Below are positions 47,599 through 62,408 of a DNA stretch of 64,000 nucleotides, one piece after another. Under the pieces are notes generated by a model that worked only from the letters and a program-made list of their open reading frames with translations, did no database searches and was not told where the DNA came from. Within the stretch, counting starts at the first letter, position 1. Each line of letters opens with the position of its first letter. A program made the position numbers and the translations under genes. Source of the stretch: an uncultured Nitrososphaerales archaeon. GTDB lineage: Archaea; Thermoproteota; Nitrososphaeria; Nitrososphaerales; Nitrososphaeraceae. The DNA lies in NCBI GenBank assembly GCA_963713605.1, contig CAVQMO010000015.1:32001-96000 (forward strand), written 5' to 3'.

Positions 47599-48244
47599 AT
47601 GAAAAGCAAAATTCTTGCTGTTACTTCTATAATAAGTATTAGCATGGTATTGATTCTTGCATCTATTGGACTGCATCCTGTATCTGGACACGAAAGAAGA
47701 CTGTATACTATCGGCGATCAAAACTATCTCTTTGTAGTAGGTTCAATGAATGAGCCAGCGTTTGTGGACGACAAATCAGGGGTTGAAGTCTTCACATGGC
47801 TCGCCTGATCCGACCGATCCTATGAATTCCCAAGCAAATGGTACAAAGCCTATTGAAGGATTGACTCTCAAGGCAGATGTATCTGCAGGAGGAAAGAACA
47901 TGACCCTAGATCTGGAACCGGCATTCAGAGATCCAGGACATTACGAGGCAGTATTCTATCCAACAGTACCAACTACATACAACTATACAGTATATGGAGA
48001 TATTAATGGTACTGCATTCCGTGATACGTTCACATGCAGACCTGCTGGTGAATCAGAACCCGCCCAAGACAATTCAACGATAACTGTATCAGATGGTGTT
48101 ACTAGAATAGGTCAATCTGGAGGATTTGGTTGTTTCGAATCAAGAGCTGATGTGTCATTCCCAGAACAGTATGTATCAAATTACGAGCTACAACAGATGT
48201 TAAGCGAACTGCGGGGAACCTCTAACGCAACATCTCTGCCTTGA
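47599..48244 (+). CDS. Secreted protein with predicted mature N-terminal His (frameshift near 47803)
   Basis: VSG|HERRLY..VGSMNEP..PGHY; paralog of 51351. Confidence 0.75.
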
Positions 48245-48341: not shown

Positions 48342-49856
48342 ATGTGGCTAGAACGTAAACATCTAATTATTACCCTATCAATACTATCCATTTTCATTAT
48401 ATCGATCATGCCTTTTACAACATTTATTCTACAAACTTTCTCGCAGGGTGAAGATATGTCTATGGTGATGACTAATTCAAATTCACAAGAAACCATCACC
48501 TCATATAAAGATGCTTTGATAAAAGCTCCGTTATTAGTGTCACAGATTGCAATAGTTGGGATAGTTTTTAATCACATTGTATTTTCAAAAGTGCTTCATA
48601 ACCGCATTCTAATAGAGCCAAATAGACCCAGTCAAATAATGCAAAAAGATATTGGGGCAGCTAGAAGAGTGTTCTTGATATTGATTCTGTCAGTTATAGT
48701 TCTGTTAGCTTCCAGCAGTGGGTTGTTCATCCTGGAGGTATATAATTTATCAGCAGAATTGGGGCTATCTTTCTCCGATACCTTTTCAATTGTATTGGAT
48801 ACTTCTGTTGGCACGGTCTGGCTTCTGAGGATTATCACTTCAATCTTGATTTTCATTCTGTTAATAATATACTATGTGTTAGTAAAGAGAAATATGATGA
48901 GTAGGAGGGAGAAGATAGATAGAGATAGCCGGAACAAGGCAAGTAACATTATCTTGTTATCTATTTTGATCCTAGGTTCAATAAATATCCTTTCGAATAG
49001 TATAGTAAGCCATAATGCTGCTGCGTCATTCTTTCCTGAGGTAGCAATATCTACTGATTGGTTACATGTGATGGCGGTTTCCATTTGGCTTGGAGGATTA
49101 TTCTATATATCAGCAATACTTCTTTATGCAATAAGAACTTCGAGTAAAAGAGAATATGAAACCAGTACAAAAGAAGAGCAAGTAGTAAGAAATTGCTACT
49201 CATTGGCAGTAATGCTTCCATATTTCTCAATTATTGCAATCATATGTTTAGGGGTGATCGGTATAAGTGGATTGTACATGGCTTGGCTTCAACTTCCATC
49301 AATAGGATCCATATTTGATTCATTATATGGAAATATCCTAATACTGAAGCTATGCGTTATCGTGCCAATGATCTTGTTAGGAGGCTACCACCAGATTAAA
49401 TTACATTTTGTCATGGTACAAATTGCACAACGAGGAAACAGGACACAAAAGCAATTTGAGATTTTACCAACCGTTGATCAAAAAAATTCTAGAGAAGTAC
49501 AAGGTGACAAAGGGCATTTCGACCCTTTTAATCGATTTTCTAAAACAATAAAGATCGAATCAATCATTGGAATTTTAGTTCTTGTGGTATCAGCATTTCT
49601 AACAATTACATCTCCTCCATCAATGCCAATGTCGGGCTCTCAGATGCAAATGCAAGGACTAGTTGGCACCAGTCCTAATAATGATGTGGGTGGTGGCGAG
49701 GAGCAACATAATCCTCGGACTTTTGATGGATTTACCATTATGGCATTAATTTTAGCTCTCGTTGTGTTGATTATGAGTCTGTATTACTACCGAAGGAGCA
49801 GGCTGGAATCAAAGATAACGGCAGATCTATTGAAGAAAAACGGATCATTATCTTAG
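48342..49856 (+). CDS. copD: CopD family copper uptake membrane protein
   Basis: SHNAA, DWLHVMAVSIWLGGLF, FS, SGLY, YGNILILK; many TMs. Confidence 0.88.
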   Translation: MWLERKHLIITLSILSIFIISIMPFTTFILQTFSQGEDMSMVMTNSNSQETITSYKDALIKAPLLVSQIAIVGIVFNHIVFSKVLHNRILIEPNRPSQIMQKDIGAARRVFLILILSVIVLLASSSGLFILEVYNLSAELGLSFSDTFSIVLDTSVGTVWLLRIITSILIFILLIIYYVLVKRNMMSRREKIDRDSRNKASNIILLSILILGSINILSNSIVSHNAAASFFPEVAISTDWLHVMAVSIWLGGLFYISAILLYAIRTSSKREYETSTKEEQVVRNCYSLAVMLPYFSIIAIICLGVIGISGLYMAWLQLPSIGSIFDSLYGNILILKLCVIVPMILLGGYHQIKLHFVMVQIAQRGNRTQKQFEILPTVDQKNSREVQGDKGHFDPFNRFSKTIKIESIIGILVLVVSAFLTITSPPSMPMSGSQMQMQGLVGTSPNNDVGGGEEQHNPRTFDGFTIMALILALVVLIMSLYYYRRSRLESKITADLLKKNGSLS

Positions 49857-49985: not shown

Positions 49986-50020
49986 AATGTATCGAGAGAA
50001 GTACTATAATGTTTATGAAT
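49986..50020 (+). promoter_or_regulatory. Degenerate operator site 3 plus TATA-like box before copC
   Basis: AATGTATCGAGAGAAGTAC-8nt-TTATGAAT; ATG at 50040. Confidence 0.45.
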
Positions 50021-50039
50021 GTGGAAAGGGAATAAATTC

Positions 50040-50871
50040 ATGCAGAAGCTGATATACTACATGGAAAAACTTCACTATTGTAATAGGAATAGATCAATTA
50101 TGCTATTGACACTTTTGATTTCATTTACCATTCTCACCCTTTTAATTGGCAATATGATTGTTCAATATGCCTATGCACATGCCAACCCTATTTCATTTTT
50201 GCCTAAGTCCAATTCGATTATCTCAGAAACTAAGAACCTACCTCAGAAAGTAGTAATCATTTACTCTGAAAGACCAGAACCAAAAGCTAGCTATATTCAC
50301 GTAACTGATTCCCATAATGAACGAATAGACAAAAACGATTACAAGATTAATGCAGATAATCCTAGAGAGGCTTCAGTTTTTATGGATACCTCAAAATTAA
50401 AACAAGGAGTGTACACAGTTACTTGGCTTGCGTTGTCAAAGGACGATGGTCATATTACAAAGGGTTCATATGTATTTAGTATTGCTAGTGCAGCTAATCC
50501 ACCAAAAACAGGTAATATATCGAGTAATGCTTTTGTCAACAGTACCTATCATAGACAACGTAAATACTACGTATAAAATATCTCCATTCTATTCCGGAAT
50601 AAATAATAATTTTACTGTTTCGTTATCTGACCTAGAAGGTAACGCCCATGCCAATATTAAGGCCGTTTTTCTAATATTCAATAACAAACAGGCAGGATTA
50701 GGACCAATAACTGCTAATTTAACTAAGGTGGGCGAAGGTGAGTATAGCGGATCGGGTGGATATCTTAGTCAACCAGGTAACTGGGAAGTGACGTTTGTGG
50801 CTCAAAGAACCAATAACTACGATCTTAATCATAGATTTACTATCAATGTAAAAAATCCTCCTACAATATGA
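50040..50871 (+). CDS. copC: CopC periplasmic copper-binding domain plus YtkA/FixH-like domain (frameshift near 50548)
   Basis: AYA|HANP..YSERPE..GVYTVTW..SKDDGHITKG; LSQPGNWEV. Confidence 0.85.
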
Positions 50872-51206: not shown

Positions 51207-51229
51207 TAGTACATTCGTCGAATGCACTA
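51207..51229. promoter_or_regulatory. Palindromic operator site 4
   Basis: TAGTACATTCG-T-CGAATGCACTA (1 mismatch). Confidence 0.75.
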
Positions 51230-51350: not shown

Positions 51351-52019
51351 TTGAGAAGTAAATTTACTTCCATTTCCGTTCTGCTAGGAGTAATGACTAT
51401 TGCTGCACTGTTACTTTTTTCAATGTCCAACAAAGGTCTAGTATATGCTCATCAGAAACAACTTTACACAATTGGAAATAATAAGTATCTGTTTGCTGCA
51501 GGATTCCTGAATGAACCTGTCTATTTGGACGACAAATCTGGAGTTGACTTGTACGTGTATACACCTGATCCAAAGGATCCTATGAGTACAGACTCAAATT
51601 CAACAAAGCCTGTAGAGGAGTTACAAGATTCTCTCAAGGCAGAGATATCTGCCGGTCCAAAAACAAAAGTTCTTGACTTGGAACCTGATGAAGAGCAGCC
51701 AGGACATTATACAGCATCCTTTATTCCAGATGTCGAAACGACCTACAAATTCCGGATCTTTGGAAATTTAAGTGGAAGTCCGATTGGCATTGATTTTTCA
51801 TGTAGCCCAGGGGCAGTTTCTGAGGATACCATAATAAGCAATTCTACAGAAAAGATTTCTGACACAGTAACGAGAAATGGAGTAATAGGAGGTTATGAGT
51901 GCCCGGCACCCAGATCTGATGGAGCGTTTCCTGAGCCAATTCTATCAAACGCTGATATAGGCAAGAAGCTTTCTGAATTAGAAAACAGAGTTTCAGCATT
52001 GGAGAATGCAACTAAATAG
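51351..52019 (+). CDS. Secreted protein with predicted mature N-terminal His
   Basis: VYA|HQKQLY..GFLNEP..PGHY; two conserved Cys; C-terminal coiled coil. Confidence 0.8.
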   Translation: MRSKFTSISVLLGVMTIAALLLFSMSNKGLVYAHQKQLYTIGNNKYLFAAGFLNEPVYLDDKSGVDLYVYTPDPKDPMSTDSNSTKPVEELQDSLKAEISAGPKTKVLDLEPDEEQPGHYTASFIPDVETTYKFRIFGNLSGSPIGIDFSCSPGAVSEDTIISNSTEKISDTVTRNGVIGGYECPAPRSDGAFPEPILSNADIGKKLSELENRVSALENATK

Positions 52020-52915: not shown

Positions 52916-54044
52916 TTACATTGAACCCATCGAACCAGCAGCCATAGACGAATTCGTTCCTACTTTTACCTCTGAAGGCTGTAATTCAAACTTCATCAGC
53001 CCATTAAATGCTTGTTGTTGTGAAGCCAGTTGCTGCCTGCGGCTGCGAGGATTGCTCTTGTTCCTTATTAGTATTAGTATTATTATTAACTCGTTTTGCC
53101 AAGTTAAGCAGAGTATCCTTTGTCAACATAATATGGATTACATCAGTTTTAGGATCAGTATTATCCAACACAATATCTTTTGTGACATCTAATCCATTTA
53201 CCGTGCCCGAATAAGAACTCGTATTAGTGAAGGCATTTGATTTAGGAACATTTATTTCTTCATGCACAAAAATATTGGCTTTCTTCAATCTGTCAATATT
53301 CCAATCAAAAGGCATACTGAATTGCATCTGCTTATTTTTTTCATTAAAGTTAAACCCATTCAATTTATCATAATATGAAATAATATTAATTGGAACATGT
53401 TTGCTATCTACATTTATCTGTCTATTTAATGTAGATCCTATGCTGAGCCAACTGTCATAGACATGTTGCTGATCAGCCGGAAGCACACAAGTATCACAAT
53501 CGATTGTTCCTATTCTAACTTTAAAATGGTACAATCCACCTTTTAGAAATATTGGTCCAGCCGCCTCCACAGGATTATCTGGTGTTCCAACATATGATCC
53601 TATAAGTGGCTCCTGTTCGCCATCAATTTTTACTATGCCTGTACTGTTATTTGGTGCTATTTCAATTCCCAATATGCCATTATGAGAATGGAACCAATTT
53701 GAAAACAGTTGTTTATTATCTTTATCTAGTATAGAAATATCATAATTCACATGATTAAATGATTTATTCGTCAGTGGATCAAATAATCTGAATTCAATTA
53801 TTGGTTTTTCATGTTTTGTTTGGAGGGTTTCCGTAGTCACAACTGAAGGGTTCATCTTTATCAGCAAATCTGATTGTCTATTACCTAACGATGCTGATGT
53901 CTGTTCCTGTGTCAAGCCATCTGCATAAGCAAGGTTAGTTATAGATGTTCTGTTAATAGCAAATAGCAGAATTAAAGCTATTAAAGAGAAGATACTGCAA
54001 ATTATGATACAAGATACAAACGAAGCAGCTCGTCTAGCAATCAA
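52916..54044 (-). CDS. Secreted thaumarchaeal protein (frameshift near C-terminus)
   Basis: Signal AYA|DG, FHSHNG, GPIFLKGGLYHF, CDTC, SYYD, MPFDW, VHEE. Confidence 0.75.
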
Positions 54045-54152: not shown

Positions 54153-54171
54153 GTACATTCGTTAAATGTAC
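54153..54171. promoter_or_regulatory. Palindromic operator site 5
   Basis: GTACATTCGTTAAATGTAC. Confidence 0.7.
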
Positions 54172-54291
54172 CACAAAATCTAATGGTAGGTAAAGCTCGT
54201 TGAGATAGCTTAAGAATTCGTAATAGGTCCAAATTCTTCGTTATTGTATATGGAATCTTTAATACATGCTATCTGTTATACAATCTATCTA

Positions 54292-54326
54292 GAACATTCG
54301 TCGGATGTACCACATTCTTTAATACA
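54292..54326 (+). promoter_or_regulatory. Operator site 6 plus TATA-like box
   Basis: GAACATTCGTCGGATGTAC-8nt-TTAATACA. Confidence 0.65.
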
Positions 54327-54456
54327 TGCCCAGGTAAACTTTCAATTATTGCATTTTGAAAAATAATTAGAATTTCTTTAGCAATCTGAACGTTCTATTG
54401 AACTAGTCAACAGAATCATGTGTGAGTGCCAAGTAGTGGTATATCCAAAATAACAC

Positions 54457-55023
54457 CTATAGCTTGTCAATAATACCCGTATAATTCTCTATAATGCGAT
54501 CTGTGAAGCTTTCTTTGTACTCTAGCAATACCCGATTGATCGTTATCTTATCTGCAACGCTATAAAGAAAATGGTCATTTCCATAGTTCGTGTTGAGTAT
54601 TCCAGCTTCTTTCAGCCTTTTGATATGCCAAGAAACGGTAGATGGAGCCTTGCCAATGTGATCTACAATTTCATTAAATGTACAAAATTCGTTCTTAAGC
54701 ATAAAAAACACAATGCTTCTAACAACATTACTTCTAAAGCAGCCTATAATATCAGAATCTCTTTTTGTTATATTGACAACAAAGTACCTTGTTACCCTAT
54801 TATTGCTCTGTCTTTCTACTCTAATCTCTCCGCTTTTCTCCAGTTTACCTAAATGATAAGATAAAACACCATTAGTCGTTCCAGATAACCTTATCAACTC
54901 CCTGTATCTTATTCCAGGATTTTCACATATGTAACTATAGATATCTTTTAGCAAATCACCTGAGCTGGGCACAAGATATTGTCCTGAAGTTGAATGGATA
55001 CTTTTATTATCTAAACTAGACAT
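54457..55023 (-). CDS. Double winged-helix transcriptional regulator (COG3398-like)
   Basis: NPGIRYRELIR..GVLSYHLGKLEK and TFNEIV..KAPSTVSWHIKRL. Confidence 0.85.
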   Translation of the reverse strand: MSSLDNKSIHSTSGQYLVPSSGDLLKDIYSYICENPGIRYRELIRLSGTTNGVLSYHLGKLEKSGEIRVERQSNNRVTRYFVVNITKRDSDIIGCFRSNVVRSIVFFMLKNEFCTFNEIVDHIGKAPSTVSWHIKRLKEAGILNTNYGNDHFLYSVADKITINRVLLEYKESFTDRIIENYTGIIDKL

Positions 55024-55457
55024 TATCTAGAGTTCACCTTTACAATGCCTATACCAAATAGGGCCAACATGGCAAATAGGATAATATGTGGTAATTCAAT
55101 GTTAACCCCTGGAATCAGTATATCCTGAATACCCCTGGCGGCATAGAAAAGAAATAGAATCTCCACTACGACAAGCGAAACAAACCCTAACGACATAAAC
55201 AACAATCTCGAACCGCCATTTCTAAAGTATGATGATAATGAAACAATACACAAGAAGATCGATAGTATTAGACTTGCAATGTGAAGAATGATATGATAAA
55301 TGTGTTGTGGGTGATTAATGTGTGGAATAATTAGTGGAATAGCCAGGATCGAAATTACAATTACTGAAACAAGAATGAAGAGTGTTGGTTTTTCAGAAAG
55401 AATGTTATTAATAATCATGCGTGATTTTCTGACAGAGTATACATGTTTCCTTTCCAT
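55023..55457 (-). CDS. His-rich 4-TM membrane protein
   Basis: IPHINHPQHIYHIILH, ELPH; TAATG overlap with regulator. Confidence 0.75.
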   Translation of the reverse strand: MERKHVYSVRKSRMIINNILSEKPTLFILVSVIVISILAIPLIIPHINHPQHIYHIILHIASLILSIFLCIVSLSSYFRNGGSRLLFMSLGFVSLVVVEILFLFYAARGIQDILIPGVNIELPHIILFAMLALFGIGIVKVNSR

Positions 55458-55579: not shown

Positions 55580-56124
55580 TTATGACCCTGTACTATTTGT
55601 TGCCTCCGCACCATCTCCATGTTCTCCTTCCTCTGCTCCAGGAGCAATTTTATTAATGCCTATGACTACTGTACTCCCAGGCGGAAATTCTAAACTATCT
55701 GTACCAGGATTTGCAATAGCTATATCTGTAATTACTTCTTCTTGTGGGGCAATATCAACATGGTAAAGACACATTTCTCCTGGAGCTGATAATTCCGGTA
55801 GATTTTCTAATTCGGCGAGCCGTGAAATTAGGCGCTTGCCCTAGTAGAACTTGAATGCTAGCAGTTGAGTTGTCTTCACATGGAACATTCACTGCAACAT
55901 GTCCATTCATTATCATATATGGTGTGGCATCATACAGATGAATAAACTTCCCAGCGGGAATGCTTGTTCCCTCAAGAAGCTCTGCTACTGAATCACGTAC
56001 TACGGTAGCGGGCCCCCTGGGCAAGCGTCGGTTGGATAATGTTATTCAGTCCATTTGTACTAAATCCCATTAGTCCAGCAATTATAAATCCAAGACAGAG
56101 AAACTTTGCATTTAATTCTCGCAT
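55580..56124 (-). CDS. Secreted His/Met/Cys-containing protein (two frameshifts)
   Basis: MRELNAKFLCLGF signal; FIHLYDATPYMIMNGHVAVNVPC; MCLYHVDI. Confidence 0.7.
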
Positions 56125-56145
56125 AGAATTTTGATCTATTCAACT

Positions 56146-56180
56146 TTAATTAAGCATTGTGGTACATTCGTCGAATGAAT
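56146..56180 (-). promoter_or_regulatory. Operator site 7 plus TATA-like box
   Basis: Minus strand ATTCATTCGACGAATGTAC-8nt-TTAATTAA; ATG 29 nt after TATA start. Confidence 0.7.
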
Positions 56181-58853: not shown

Positions 58854-59547
58854 ATGGCAGCGGCGACAACAACGGCAACAACTACAACTGAAACCACTAC
58901 AGCCTCTATTAAAGGTGAAATTCCAAACTGGAGAGTTACAGGTGATTGGTTTGACGTTTGTAAGTGCAACATACCATGTCCTTGTGAGTTTGCCCAAACT
59001 CCAACGTATGGCGACGGTATTTTAGCTTATAATATCAAAAAAGGCAATTATGGTGAAATTCACCTTGATGGCTTGAGTGTAATAGCCGTGGGTAGCTTCG
59101 AAGGTAATATCTGGGCAGGCGATGGCAAAACAAAAGTGGATCTTGCACTATTTTTTTGACGAGAAAGCAAATGAACAGCAAAGAGAAGCACTGAATATGA
59201 TTTTTAGTGGAAAGGCCGGTGGTTTTATGGCGGAGTTTGTAAAGCTTATTGGAGAAGTTCGGGGAATTGAATACGCTCCTATCAAGTTTGAGTTGGCAGA
59301 TGATTTATTCTATTGGAGTGCAGAGATACCCGGAAAAGTTTTTGCAAAAGCTGAGGCATTAACAGGCCCTACGACGCCGCCTGGTAAACGCGTTCAAACT
59401 ATTAACCCGCCTGGTAGTGAGGTAGGACCTGGAGGAGTTGCAACTTGGGGGATATCTCTTGCTGACGAAGTCGATACAATAGGCTTCAAATGGAAAAGAA
59501 AAGGTAGATCAAGTAAGCATATTCCATTTGATTGGAGCGGACCATGA
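58854..59547 (+). CDS. DUF1326 protein (frameshift in T7 run near 59150)
   Basis: GDWFDVCKCNIPCPC, DEKANEQQREAL..IFSG, FDWSGP. Confidence 0.85.
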
Positions 59548-59605: not shown

Positions 59606-60580
59606 ATGAAAACTTCTTCATCCATAAAAATTATTATTGTAGTTATATCAATCTCTATATTTACTTGGTTCGTATCGATATGGCAGTATGATACTATGAT
59701 GTCTTCTATAATGACATATTACTATAGTCCAGTAGCATTATCATTGTTTGCAATAATATGGACTGCGGGTATGGCTGCTATGATGTTCCCAGCTATAATA
59801 CCAATGATTCTTTTCTACAATAGACTCATTGATAGTAGTAAAGGCAACAAAGGTAATTTCCATTCTTATAATAGTAGTCAGGTGTTATATCATGGACAGA
59901 ATGATACCCACAGTGATACGGATAACAACAATAAAAATTATAATAGGATACCAAGTTCGGTAAATCAAGATCAAAATAAACATAGAAAGATCTACAATCT
60001 AAGCTATGTGTTCAGACCCAAGATTTATTATATGATGATTTTCATATTATCATATCTCGCAATCTGGGCAATAACTGGGATAGTACTGCTCATTGGATGG
60101 TCTTATGCCTTAGACATATTATTAGCACAATTGGGAATAAATGATATTCAACATCAGCAGGTACAACAGCAAAAGGAGCAACTATCGATAAATACTATAT
60201 ATGGAGTCCTGCTGATCATATCTGGGATCTATCAATTTAGCTCGCTAAAAGCCAAATGTCTTGGATATTGTGAATCTCCTCTTAGTTTCTTTATGAGGAG
60301 ATGGCGGAAGGGAGCAGTGGGAGCGGTGAAGATGGGAACATATCATGGCCTATATTGTCTCGGTTGTTGCTGGCCCTACTTTTTACTTATGGTAGCATTA
60401 GGATGGATGAATATTATCTGGATGGGTCTGTTTGCGGCCATCATCTTTGCTGAAAAGATTTGGGCTAAAGGCGGGCTCTGGATCGCTAGAATCACTGGTA
60501 TCTGCCTCATAACTATTGGAATTCTATCTTTGACTGGGATGATACTGCTTCCTTCTGATCCTATGAGTAGGTACTCGTGA
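59606..60580 (+). CDS. DUF2182 predicted metal-binding membrane protein
   Basis: MAAMMFP, YQFSSLKAKCLGYC, YCLGCCW, EK. Confidence 0.9.
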   Translation: MKTSSSIKIIIVVISISIFTWFVSIWQYDTMMSSIMTYYYSPVALSLFAIIWTAGMAAMMFPAIIPMILFYNRLIDSSKGNKGNFHSYNSSQVLYHGQNDTHSDTDNNNKNYNRIPSSVNQDQNKHRKIYNLSYVFRPKIYYMMIFILSYLAIWAITGIVLLIGWSYALDILLAQLGINDIQHQQVQQQKEQLSINTIYGVLLIISGIYQFSSLKAKCLGYCESPLSFFMRRWRKGAVGAVKMGTYHGLYCLGCCWPYFLLMVALGWMNIIWMGLFAAIIFAEKIWAKGGLWIARITGICLITIGILSLTGMILLPSDPMSRYS

Positions 60581-60827: not shown

Positions 60828-62408
60828 CTATTGAGTTTTTAAAGGAAGAGAAAATTGAAAAGTAGCACCTTGTCTGCCTTTGTTATTATATGCCCATATC
60901 TTGCCTTTGTGTGCTTCTATGATACTCTTTGAGATAAACAATCCTAATCCTGTACCCGTCTTGAAACTAGTGGCAAATCTTGTAAACAATCTTGGCATTA
61001 TTTCCAGATCTATTCCTCTTCCAGTATCTGTGATCGAAACAATCGCTACTGCATCAGGTGATATAGGACGACGACCAGTCTTGTAGCACTCATCACTATA
61101 GTTGATATCATTAGAGCCGTTATTATTTTCAATTTGATAATCAAAATATGTAGGATGTTGATAGCTGTGTAAACATCTCATCGATATTATTATCCCACCT
61201 ATTTTTCCACTATCTATTTCTGTTACATCATCAATTGATTTGATCGCATTATTAATTAAATTTGAAATAACCTGATAAATTCTTACCTTGTCAGCCTCGA
61301 TTTCAACTTTATTCTCAGATCCAAGTTTTAATTGTAAAGCATCTATTTCCATCTCATCTTCCTCAGCATTTGCAGCACCGGTTTGGTGAATGTGATATCT
61401 TAACTCTATCTTAGACCTGGCATGTTTTTGGTAATGATAATGATGTGCAAGTTGTTTTTCAAAATCAGAAACTGTATCATGTATTAATTTGTTAAGATCA
61501 AAAATCTCTTTTTTTAGCTTTAAATTATCATTCTCTATATTAGTTAAATCGAGTATGTTTTCTGCGAGCTTGTTGAGCTTTTCAGCATTTCTCATTATCG
61601 TGTCCAATGATTCTTCTTCCTTTCCTCTGAGCGATTCTTTTTCATTTTTTAAGAGATATGATAAACCCATTATGGGTTGGATTGGAGTACGCAATTCATG
61701 AGCAGCTACACTGATAAACTCCTTGTACTTCTTGTCTTGCATTATCAGTTTCTCATTTACTTTTTTTACTTGTTGATGTAGCCCAACTTGGGTCCATAAA
61801 TTCTCAAAAATAGAAATGTAAGGAAAAATCCTAGAGGAATCAGTACAATATGTCGATAAACCAGCCGCTGTTTCACATGACTCTTCGATGTCATCTTTTA
61901 GTTCTGTTACGAGTGAAATATTTTTATCAATTACTAGGATCGTTGCTCTAGTTCCTGAGATCTCTTGAATGAATCTGATCGATTCATCGCTACTATTATT
62001 CTCTTTATTGGTTTTCATTTTGTGAGTTGTCTCTAGAAAAAATGGTTTCTGTTCTACAAACTTCTCGATTAGTGGATGACGAGGTACCAAAACCTTTACT
62101 CTCACATTTCGGTGCCTCGTTACGTCAGTTAATGCCTTAATAGCTCCAATCTTTTCATGCCTAAGAAATGAATTAGCAGTAGGAAAAAAAAGTAAGATTT
62201 CCTCATTAGCTGAGGATATGCTATTCAGGCATAACTGTCGTGTTATAATAGGGTCCTTAATGCCTTCAATTATATTTAGTTTCTTACTGATTTCTATTTC
62301 AATATTTTCTTGTTTTGTCAGAGTTGAATCATCATTTCGAATATTAGGAATCTTTTGAAATTTAACATTATAACCGCTATTTGATGTCAAAGTACTTATC
62401 TTGTTCAT
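60828..62408 (-). CDS. Sensor histidine kinase (HisKA + HATPase)
   Basis: AAHELRTPIQP, NLINNAIK, DTGRGI, GTGLGL, GATFQFSLP. Confidence 0.95.
   Translation of the reverse strand: MNKISTLTSNSGYNVKFQKIPNIRNDDSTLTKQENIEIEISKKLNIIEGIKDPIITRQLCLNSISSANEEILLFFPTANSFLRHEKIGAIKALTDVTRHRNVRVKVLVPRHPLIEKFVEQKPFFLETTHKMKTNKENNSSDESIRFIQEISGTRATILVIDKNISLVTELKDDIEESCETAAGLSTYCTDSSRIFPYISIFENLWTQVGLHQQVKKVNEKLIMQDKKYKEFISVAAHELRTPIQPIMGLSYLLKNEKESLRGKEEESLDTIMRNAEKLNKLAENILDLTNIENDNLKLKKEIFDLNKLIHDTVSDFEKQLAHHYHYQKHARSKIELRYHIHQTGAANAEEDEMEIDALQLKLGSENKVEIEADKVRIYQVISNLINNAIKSIDDVTEIDSGKIGGIIISMRCLHSYQHPTYFDYQIENNNGSNDINYSDECYKTGRRPISPDAVAIVSITDTGRGIDLEIMPRLFTRFATSFKTGTGLGLFISKSIIEAHKGKIWAYNNKGRQGATFQFSLPLKTQ

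Follow-up and report, generated by a model that had tools for sequence, protein, structure and literature searches.

Ammonia-oxidising archaea need copper enzymes for nitrification, and a gene pair in the copper-uptake cluster of a soil ammonia oxidiser of the Nitrososphaeraceae raises the question of whether the supply of this metal could be reported to their genes by a small membrane protein and a DNA-binding partner, without a kinase. The pair lies in G000:C15:32001-96000 (the window, by which we mean the whole stretch of 64,000 nucleotides that was analysed). On the minus strand, a membrane protein of 144 amino acids is encoded at 55023-55457 and a tandem winged-helix regulator of 188 amino acids at 54457-55023, the TAA stop of the former gene and the ATG of the latter having base 55023 in common in the sequence TAATG. 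This confirms the stop/start overlap described in the original prediction. The four-TM protein with five His residues and an ELPH motif is also as described there, open reading frame 55023-55457 containing PHINHPQHIYHIILH at residues 45-59 and ELPH at residues 121-124.

The operator upstream of the operon of the pair is at 56162-56180, and between it and the membrane gene sits gene X (55580-56124, minus strand), the first gene after the operator, which encodes an exported protein of about 180 amino acids. The membrane gene and the regulator gene come after gene X on the same strand; since a T-rich tract and 122 nt intervene between gene X and the membrane gene, we only infer that gene X and the pair are co-transcribed in the window. 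Gene X is split over three frames, with single-base shifts near 56010 and 55817, and intact paralogues exist elsewhere in the genome (G000:C3:27216-27833 and C12:156630-157241). Contigs from other runs (≥99% identity) lack one base at 55817 (X1, X2, X20) and at 56010 (X1), and as these losses join the three frames of gene X, the shifts in the window are probably assembly errors or strain variants. Contigs 100% identical to the window over 54649-54935 and 55680-55831 come from two metatranscriptome-labelled libraries, flagged "probably DNA", and were not counted as evidence.

A profile search for the membrane protein was positive in 96 of 201 sampled genomes of the class, that is, in 14/14 genomes of the window's own family (f1), 74/114 of f2, 5/5 of f3 and 1/2 each of f5 and f12, while 63 genomes of nine other families yielded none (0/63). 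Among 1.84 billion representatives only 138 proteins match the membrane family at E≤0.001; since all are ≤175 amino acids long save one (1569 amino acids, 14 stretches), which is not a fusion to a DNA-binding domain, no fused form was encountered. Of 29 loci in other genomes, 26 have the membrane gene followed by the regulator gene on the same strand at a spacing of -47 to +19 nt, with a 4-nt overlap of the two genes in 11 of these 26 ordered loci; of the remaining loci, one has the order reversed and two are without a regulator match, one of them at a contig end. The pair is thus a conserved, tightly coupled module of ammonia-oxidising archaea.

The genome that holds the window has three further copies of the membrane gene, of which the one on C3 is followed by a frameshifted regulator and the one on C12 by a regulator remnant, while the fourth copy of the gene in this genome carries a stop. 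Paralogue operons with the order operator, gene X, membrane gene are found at G000:C3:27966-28982 and C12:155866-156479. The broken regulators of C3 and C12 may be assembly errors too, given the indels seen in gene X. That some membrane genes (L034, L048 and the copies on C3 and C12) have no intact regulator beside them suggests an independent function of the membrane protein. Paralogue pairs with bPH/SHOCT and dUTPase genes as neighbours, and with neither copper genes nor palindromes, retain the full His/Glu set described below; the site therefore need not be copper-specific, and in the window too its copper specificity is putative. Two contigs have near-identical stretches, L008 (G000:C13) and L010 (G000:C2), with a homologue of gene X and a truncated copy of the regulator; duplication or strain variation may account for them, and the stated contamination of the genome is 4.48%.

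Copper-related genes surround the pair in the window. A CopD-domain membrane protein (48342-49856, plus strand; PF05425, 9.1e-17), a CopC-domain protein (50019-50576, plus; PF04234, 4.2e-12) and, by its Pfam match, a PpoB2 copper-chaperone membrane protein (59606-60580, plus) are encoded there. The CopC open reading frame is overlapped by another in a different frame (50428-50871, plus), and 50019-50871 may be a single longer gene with a frameshift; similarly, a DUF1326 domain split across the overlapping frames 58854-59159 and 59122-59547 (plus) precedes the PpoB2 protein. Two kinds of exported protein accompany these genes: one of 346 amino acids without a Pfam family (53004-54044, minus), with two operators upstream, and one of 222 amino acids (51351-52019, plus), whose predicted mature N-terminus begins with His. 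Gene content was compared over 21 loci, the window and L043-L062, which represent several genera and two families and include kin that are not independent. All-against-all BLAST located the 346-amino-acid family near the pair in 9/21 loci (8/20 without the window), marine lineages included, and the exported family of 47750-48244 and 51351-52019 in 13/21. By Pfam, CopC/CopD, cupredoxin, HMA or PpoB2 domains occur near the pair in at least 6/21 loci, such copper-domain counts being minima because 111 of the 185 open reading frames of L052-L062 were scanned. In L043, L044 and L058, fusions of about 1000 amino acids that combine CopC, CopD and a Vgb_lyase/SGL beta-propeller directly adjoin the pair; L048 has CopC, cupredoxin and HMA domains nearby, and in L057 a cupredoxin gene is immediately upstream. 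Linkage to copC/copD, which had been put forward as a check, is therefore found, together with linkage to cupredoxins and to the two exported families, in several genera and two families. As for the claim that the pair works without a kinase, neither protein has a HisKA, HATPase or Response_reg match in Pfam; the claim is not secure, because a histidine kinase (HisKA and HATPase_c; 60828-62408, minus) is encoded at a distance of 5 kb.

The palindrome GTACATTCG-N-CGAATGTAC occurs in the window at 51209, 54153, 54292 and 56162. The site of the pair's own operon, GTACATTCGTCGAATGAAT (56162-56180), lies 7 nt upstream of a TATA-like box (56144-56154), which is followed after about 25 nt by the ATG of gene X (56124), so that the operator occupies -38 to -56. 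Two sites precede the gene of the 346-amino-acid protein: the perfect-arm operator GTACATTCGTTAAATGTAC (54153-54171), about 22 nt upstream of TTTATATA, and a second operator at 54292-54310. The latter is flanked on either side by CTTTAATACATGC (54258-54270 and 54318-54330), which on the minus strand reads GCATGTATTAAAG; the two GCATGTATTAAAG copies may be TATA-like promoter elements. The fourth site (51209-51227) is upstream of the gene of the exported 222-amino-acid protein. Eight strand matches were counted in the window against a shuffle mean of 0.49, and 0/100 shuffles reached eight; the palindrome thus exceeds chance, which upholds the operator-marked cluster of the original prediction. 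That prediction also placed the pair downstream of a "site 7", which cannot be mapped, since only four clear operators were found in the window, not seven or more; a looser scan of the window (≤5 mismatches) added no palindrome site.

Genome-wide, with at most one mismatch in 14 core positions, five sites were found against 0.74 expected from base composition: three in the cluster of the window, one before the C3 paralogue operon and one within an open reading frame of C10. In the complete genome G159, five of six sites are inside the 11 kb that end at the pair, and a reversed-pattern control gave none. In L046 and L058 the palindrome is immediately before the membrane gene, and in L053 it stands at the head of an operon that comprises gene X, the gene of an exported protein and then the pair. 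No palindrome was found in four non-copper paralogue loci (L045, L047, L049 and L051). In two genera, palindrome sites are thus concentrated about the pair.

The membrane protein has no Pfam or NCBIfam family match, and the residues that may matter to its function were sought by conservation in two sets, one of 31 sequences (down to about 27% identity) and one of 67. The original prediction rested on five His residues, and four of these hold, H46 (29/31; 55/67), H49 (31/31; 59/67), H55 (31/31; 61/67) and H59 (31/31; 66/67), which together with E99 (31/31; 63/67), E121 (30/31; 62/67) and H124 (31/31; 63/67) are near-invariant to about 25% identity. The fifth, H52 (11/31; 25/67), is not conserved, nor is H5. 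P45 (31/31; 64/67) and F68 (31/31; 65/67) are also kept. The AlphaFold model (pLDDT 84.9, pTM 0.77) shows four long helices (23-46, 50-80, 83-107 and 121-142) behind an N-terminal helix (4-21). Lys and Arg together average 3.5 residues each for the N-tail and loop 2 and 1.9 for the C-tail, whereas loop 1 averages 0.13 and the acidic loop 3 averages 0.30. By the positive-inside rule both termini are likely cytoplasmic, a predicted topology that would place all conserved His and Glu residues in the outer third of the helix bundle, with H46, H49, H55, H59, E99, E121 and H124 likely facing outward; the topology check proposed with the original prediction thus gives the expected outer position. In the model, H55 and H59 would lie on one helix face, and E121 and H124 likewise on one face. 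The sole conserved cytoplasmic surface is loop 2 (Y77 in 55/67, R/K79 in 62/67 and R/K84 in 67/67), with the basic pattern S-x-x-[AS]-Y-x-[RK]-x(4)-[RK]; the N-tail is variable, and the surface for cytoplasmic docking is small.

Searches with the model and the sequence brought no relative of known structure. Foldseek against the PDB gave no match at E≤0.001, a PDB sequence-profile search gave nothing under E 0.38, and the best Z score of a wide VIA-align search, 8.7, was to unrelated helical bundles, which is the background level of helical models. An identity as an intramembrane protease or a desaturase was considered and rejected, these being absent from the top Pfam matches of the 67 members and the order of the motifs being different from that known for such enzymes. 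Prediction of a complex of the membrane protein with the regulator (alignments A2 and A3) scored 0.00, which speaks neither for nor against binding.

For the regulator, the two helix-turn-helix units of the original prediction correspond to two winged-helix domains, recognised both by Pfam (27-85 and 102-144) and in the model. The N-terminal domain matches PF24266 (HVO_0163-type) with 44.1 bits over residues 27-85 (cut-off 31), a family whose cut-off is also exceeded by the regulators of relatives and of haloarchaea. The C-terminal domain is an ArsR-type winged helix (PF01022, 47.6 bits, cut-off 22, residues 103-144), HTH_24/HTH_5 matches (PF13412, PF01022) spanning 102-144. In the model (pLDDT 80.5) winged-helix domains at 21-82 and 99-156 are followed by two C-terminal helices, and there is no TM helix. 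Taken singly, the domains superpose on CadC, CzrA, SmtB, HlyU and BigR; for the C-terminal domain, Foldseek gave TMt 0.65-0.75 and rmsd 1.5-2.5 over about 80 residues, and sequence profiles gave matches as well. For the two domains in tandem, the only matches were unrelated proteins that also have winged helices in tandem. Among 30 aligned regulators no Cys is conserved, and of the His residues (H57 in 23, otherwise Tyr; H122 in 10; H133 in 9) only H57, in a helix of the first winged helix, is frequent. The regulator is thus without a conserved Cys/His metal-ligand set of the alpha3N or alpha5 type. Its score for the NCBIfam HTH_metalloreg subfamily (41.6 bits) is under the cut-off of 55, that for the SdpR family NF033789 (29.6 bits) is under the cut-off of 100, and neither TRASH nor another metal-binding domain is among its Pfam matches at E≤0.01.

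A comparable operon has been described in Nitrososphaera viennensis. Under copper limitation NVIE_014280 (ArsR) and NVIE_014290 (hypothetical) rise with log2FC values of 2.47 and 2.72, respectively, and in the passages of Reyes et al. 2020 (PMC7785015) that concern them the two are presumed to be co-transcribed and to adjoin copC/D, with the motif TTCSGSMTTTGWACYANT at -35 to -70 of the NVIE_014290 promoter. The supplement of that paper suggests that the ArsR protein may repress transcription and bind copper. The authors also point to a two-component system that is induced elsewhere, and they call the regulation of cop genes in ammonia-oxidising archaea an open question. Dreer et al. 2025 (PMC12448741), in the part that deals with these genes, describe NVIE_014290 as a biofilm-induced putative cation channel and report induction of both genes in biofilm. 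The resemblance to the window lies in the order of a hypothetical (membrane) gene and an ArsR regulator gene, in the position by copC/D and in the promoter motif; the operator of the window is at -38 to -56 of gene X, and gene X intervenes between operator and pair, unlike in the N. viennensis operon. In our own comparison, the other-strand reading of the published motif has TGGTACA...CGAA in common with the palindrome of the window, whereas the centre of its consensus is unlike that of the palindrome. Judged by this alignment of motifs, the palindrome belongs to the motif family published for the copper-limitation genes of N. viennensis. We regard NVIE_014290 and NVIE_014280 as probable orthologues of the pair, on the basis of gene order and of the published descriptions rather than of sequence. 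A homologue search with the L044 protein gave none from N. viennensis among the best 120 of 901 proteins; a protein identical to that of L044 is named Ngar_c02830 by NCBI, and a scan of genome contigs for the membrane family returned only five loci, from Nitrososphaera MAGs.

Relatives of the pair extend to haloarchaea. Eighteen of the 67 members of the membrane family weakly match DUF7471 (PF24283; best E 1.5e-6), the protein of the window itself giving no match to PF24283 at E≤1, and in a protein atlas DUF7471, DUF7521 and DUF8036 clusters lie near the membrane protein at 0.76-0.82 only. Full-length homologues of the regulator were found on 48 haloarchaeal plasmids (26-31% identity over 82-87% of the query), and in 8/8 plasmid loci inspected a small membrane gene adjoins the homologue: in six directly upstream on the same strand (two with a 4-nt overlap), in one upstream across nosL and in one divergently. 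Two of these small membrane proteins match DUF7471 at 1e-27 and 1e-29. The small haloarchaeal proteins are about 90-110 amino acids long, with three helices and a basic loop (AYRR...), and a His/Glu motif, HHLxEHG or LELLEHG, at the start of the last helix, where the protein of the window has ELPH. The DUF7471/PF24266 pairs thus have the regulator architecture and the basic cytoplasmic loop of the window pair, while the haloarchaeal DUF7471 proteins are without the PH..H / H...H cluster of its TM1-TM2; both the DUF7471 and the HVO_0163-type families are functionally uncharacterised. Neighbours in some haloarchaeal loci include NosL/NosD, plastocyanin, multicopper oxidase, a metal transporter and a P-type ATPase. 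In L069 (plasmid pHH406 of Haloarcula hispanica), nosL shares a strand with a DUF7471 gene and the gene of an HVO_0163-type regulator, beside nosD and ABC genes, so that a homologous module lies within a maturation cluster for nitrous-oxide reductase, a copper enzyme. The genome of the window itself has a second type of module in reverse order (L009, G000:C10:915572-916335; L011, G000:C5:334755-335621), in which a PF24266 regulator precedes a small DUF7521-like membrane protein that keeps a SISAYR..G..K loop and is without the His cluster. From these sequences we infer that a common docking loop may be joined to a variable sensing face across the modules.

How the pair would work can be proposed on this basis. 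The reading that we favour, tentatively and as a good possibility rather than a probability, is that the membrane protein binds copper or another metal at its outward His/Glu site and thereby controls the occupancy of the GTACATTCG-N-CGAATGTAC operators by its partner. The regulator would bind the palindrome and control its own operon and the neighbouring genes of exported proteins; the metal state of the membrane protein would be relayed through the basic cytoplasmic loop 2, and the regulator might be held at, or released from, the membrane in the manner of SdpI/SdpR. The published induction of the probable N. viennensis orthologues by copper limitation would agree with an empty outer site that either frees a repressor or leads to activation. 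The pair would then likely be a kinase-free switch that reports the copper supply to genes.

The same observations have to be weighed under other explanations. That the two genes are mere neighbours without functional coupling is very improbable, their order and overlap being retained in 26/29 loci from three families and homologous pairs being present in haloarchaea. A more serious, if somewhat doubtful, alternative is that the membrane protein is a small oligomeric copper channel or transporter, and the regulator an ordinary autoregulated ArsR-like repressor or activator that is co-expressed with the gene of its cargo, in the manner of arsRB or cadCA, and senses its signal by itself in the cytoplasm. 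Genes of ArsR-type repressors commonly adjoin those of their transporters, ion pathways typically have His/Glu pairs within the membrane on single helix faces, such as H55/H59 and E121/H124, some membrane genes have been retained with no intact regulator, and in L043, L044 and L058 the membrane gene directly adjoins the CopC/CopD fusions. The name "putative cation channel" given to NVIE_014290 in the relevant part of Dreer et al. 2025 (PMC12448741) points the same way. However, a regulator that itself sensed a cytoplasmic metal sits poorly with the missing Cys/His ligand set, the same type of regulator is paired across two archaeal phyla and in many contexts, and the haloarchaeal relatives have only about 90-110 amino acids and three helices. 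Fold searches with the membrane model found no transporter fold over background, a result that weighs neither way.

Alternatively, the pair may be a sensor and its regulator whose signal is not copper as such, being another divalent metal, pH through His protonation, or a redox or envelope cue, the copy of the window having been recruited to a copper cluster. We consider this unlikely, although we give it some weight, since the conserved residues are no different in paralogues away from copper genes. It would also agree with the second module type of the same genome, which keeps the basic loop and the regulator type without the His cluster, with the varied contexts of the haloarchaeal pairs, and with the biofilm induction of NVIE_014290 stated in the section on these genes of PMC12448741. 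Against it, the palindrome is tied to the copies in copper contexts and is related to the copper-limitation motif as printed for N. viennensis, and copper genes recur beside the pair in both archaeal phyla.

If the preferred reading of an outward metal site coupled to the regulator is extended beyond the window, it leads to a broader proposal, which we hold more loosely as no more than possible: two-protein modules without a kinase would form a class that is widespread in archaea and so far undescribed. In each, a small membrane protein of a DUF7471 superfamily would read a metal at an outward His/Glu site and use a conserved basic cytoplasmic loop to gate its tandem winged-helix partner, and the four-helix His-rich branch would be the copper-supply sensor of ammonia oxidisers, driving a copper-limitation regulon. 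As a candidate copper sensor the pair is concrete: its operator and regulon are defined, and seven residues are candidate ligands. Homologous pairs exist in genetically tractable haloarchaea, where deletions and point mutations, not yet routine in ammonia oxidisers, are feasible.

Part of this picture is already in print, as Reyes et al. 2020 (PMC7785015, in the passages cited above) report that the N. viennensis genes are induced and describe their motif. In those passages and in the corresponding ones of Dreer et al. 2025 (PMC12448741), NVIE_014290 and NVIE_014280 are treated separately and no sensing pair is proposed. A literature search on the locus tags, DUF7471, DUF7521, PF24283, PF24266 and HVO_0163 found nothing further, save that one preprint names DUF7521 in passing, as an uncharacterised pair of a transmembrane protein and a regulator. 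We did not find in print the recognition of the membrane protein and regulator as a module conserved across ammonia oxidisers, the ligand-like residue set and topology of the former, the missing ligands of the latter, or the kinship with haloarchaeal DUF7471/HVO_0163-type pairs.

Among known regulators, the proposed logic has its nearest counterpart in Bacillus subtilis, where the polytopic membrane protein SdpI holds SdpR, an ArsR-type autorepressor of the same operon, at the membrane without the participation of a kinase, the signal of SdpI being a peptide toxin. SdpI/SdpR thus resembles the window pair in combining a membrane protein with an ArsR-type regulator in a kinase-free scheme. The signal is a peptide and not a metal, SdpI has no homology with the membrane protein of the window, the SdpI family occurs neither among the Pfam matches of this protein nor among the top families that its relatives match, the two genes stand in the opposite order, and the regulator of the window has two winged-helix domains. 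The ArsR/SmtB proteins (CadC, CzrA, SmtB, HlyU and BigR) have the fold of the C-terminal domain of this regulator; they are single-domain homodimers with defined Cys/His/Asp/Glu sites, whereas the regulator of the window combines two different winged-helix domains in each chain. Archaeal copper regulators with a TRASH domain, CopR/CopT, are mentioned in the portion of Reyes et al. (PMC7785015) that deals with cop genes, and like the regulator of the window they are archaeal transcription factors tied to such genes. CopR/CopT respond to cytoplasmic copper excess, and the regulator of the window has no TRASH domain. Finally, membrane-tethered one-component regulators (ToxR-like proteins and ArnR) carry the DNA-binding domain and the TM segment in one chain, whereas in the pair of the window the two are on separate chains.
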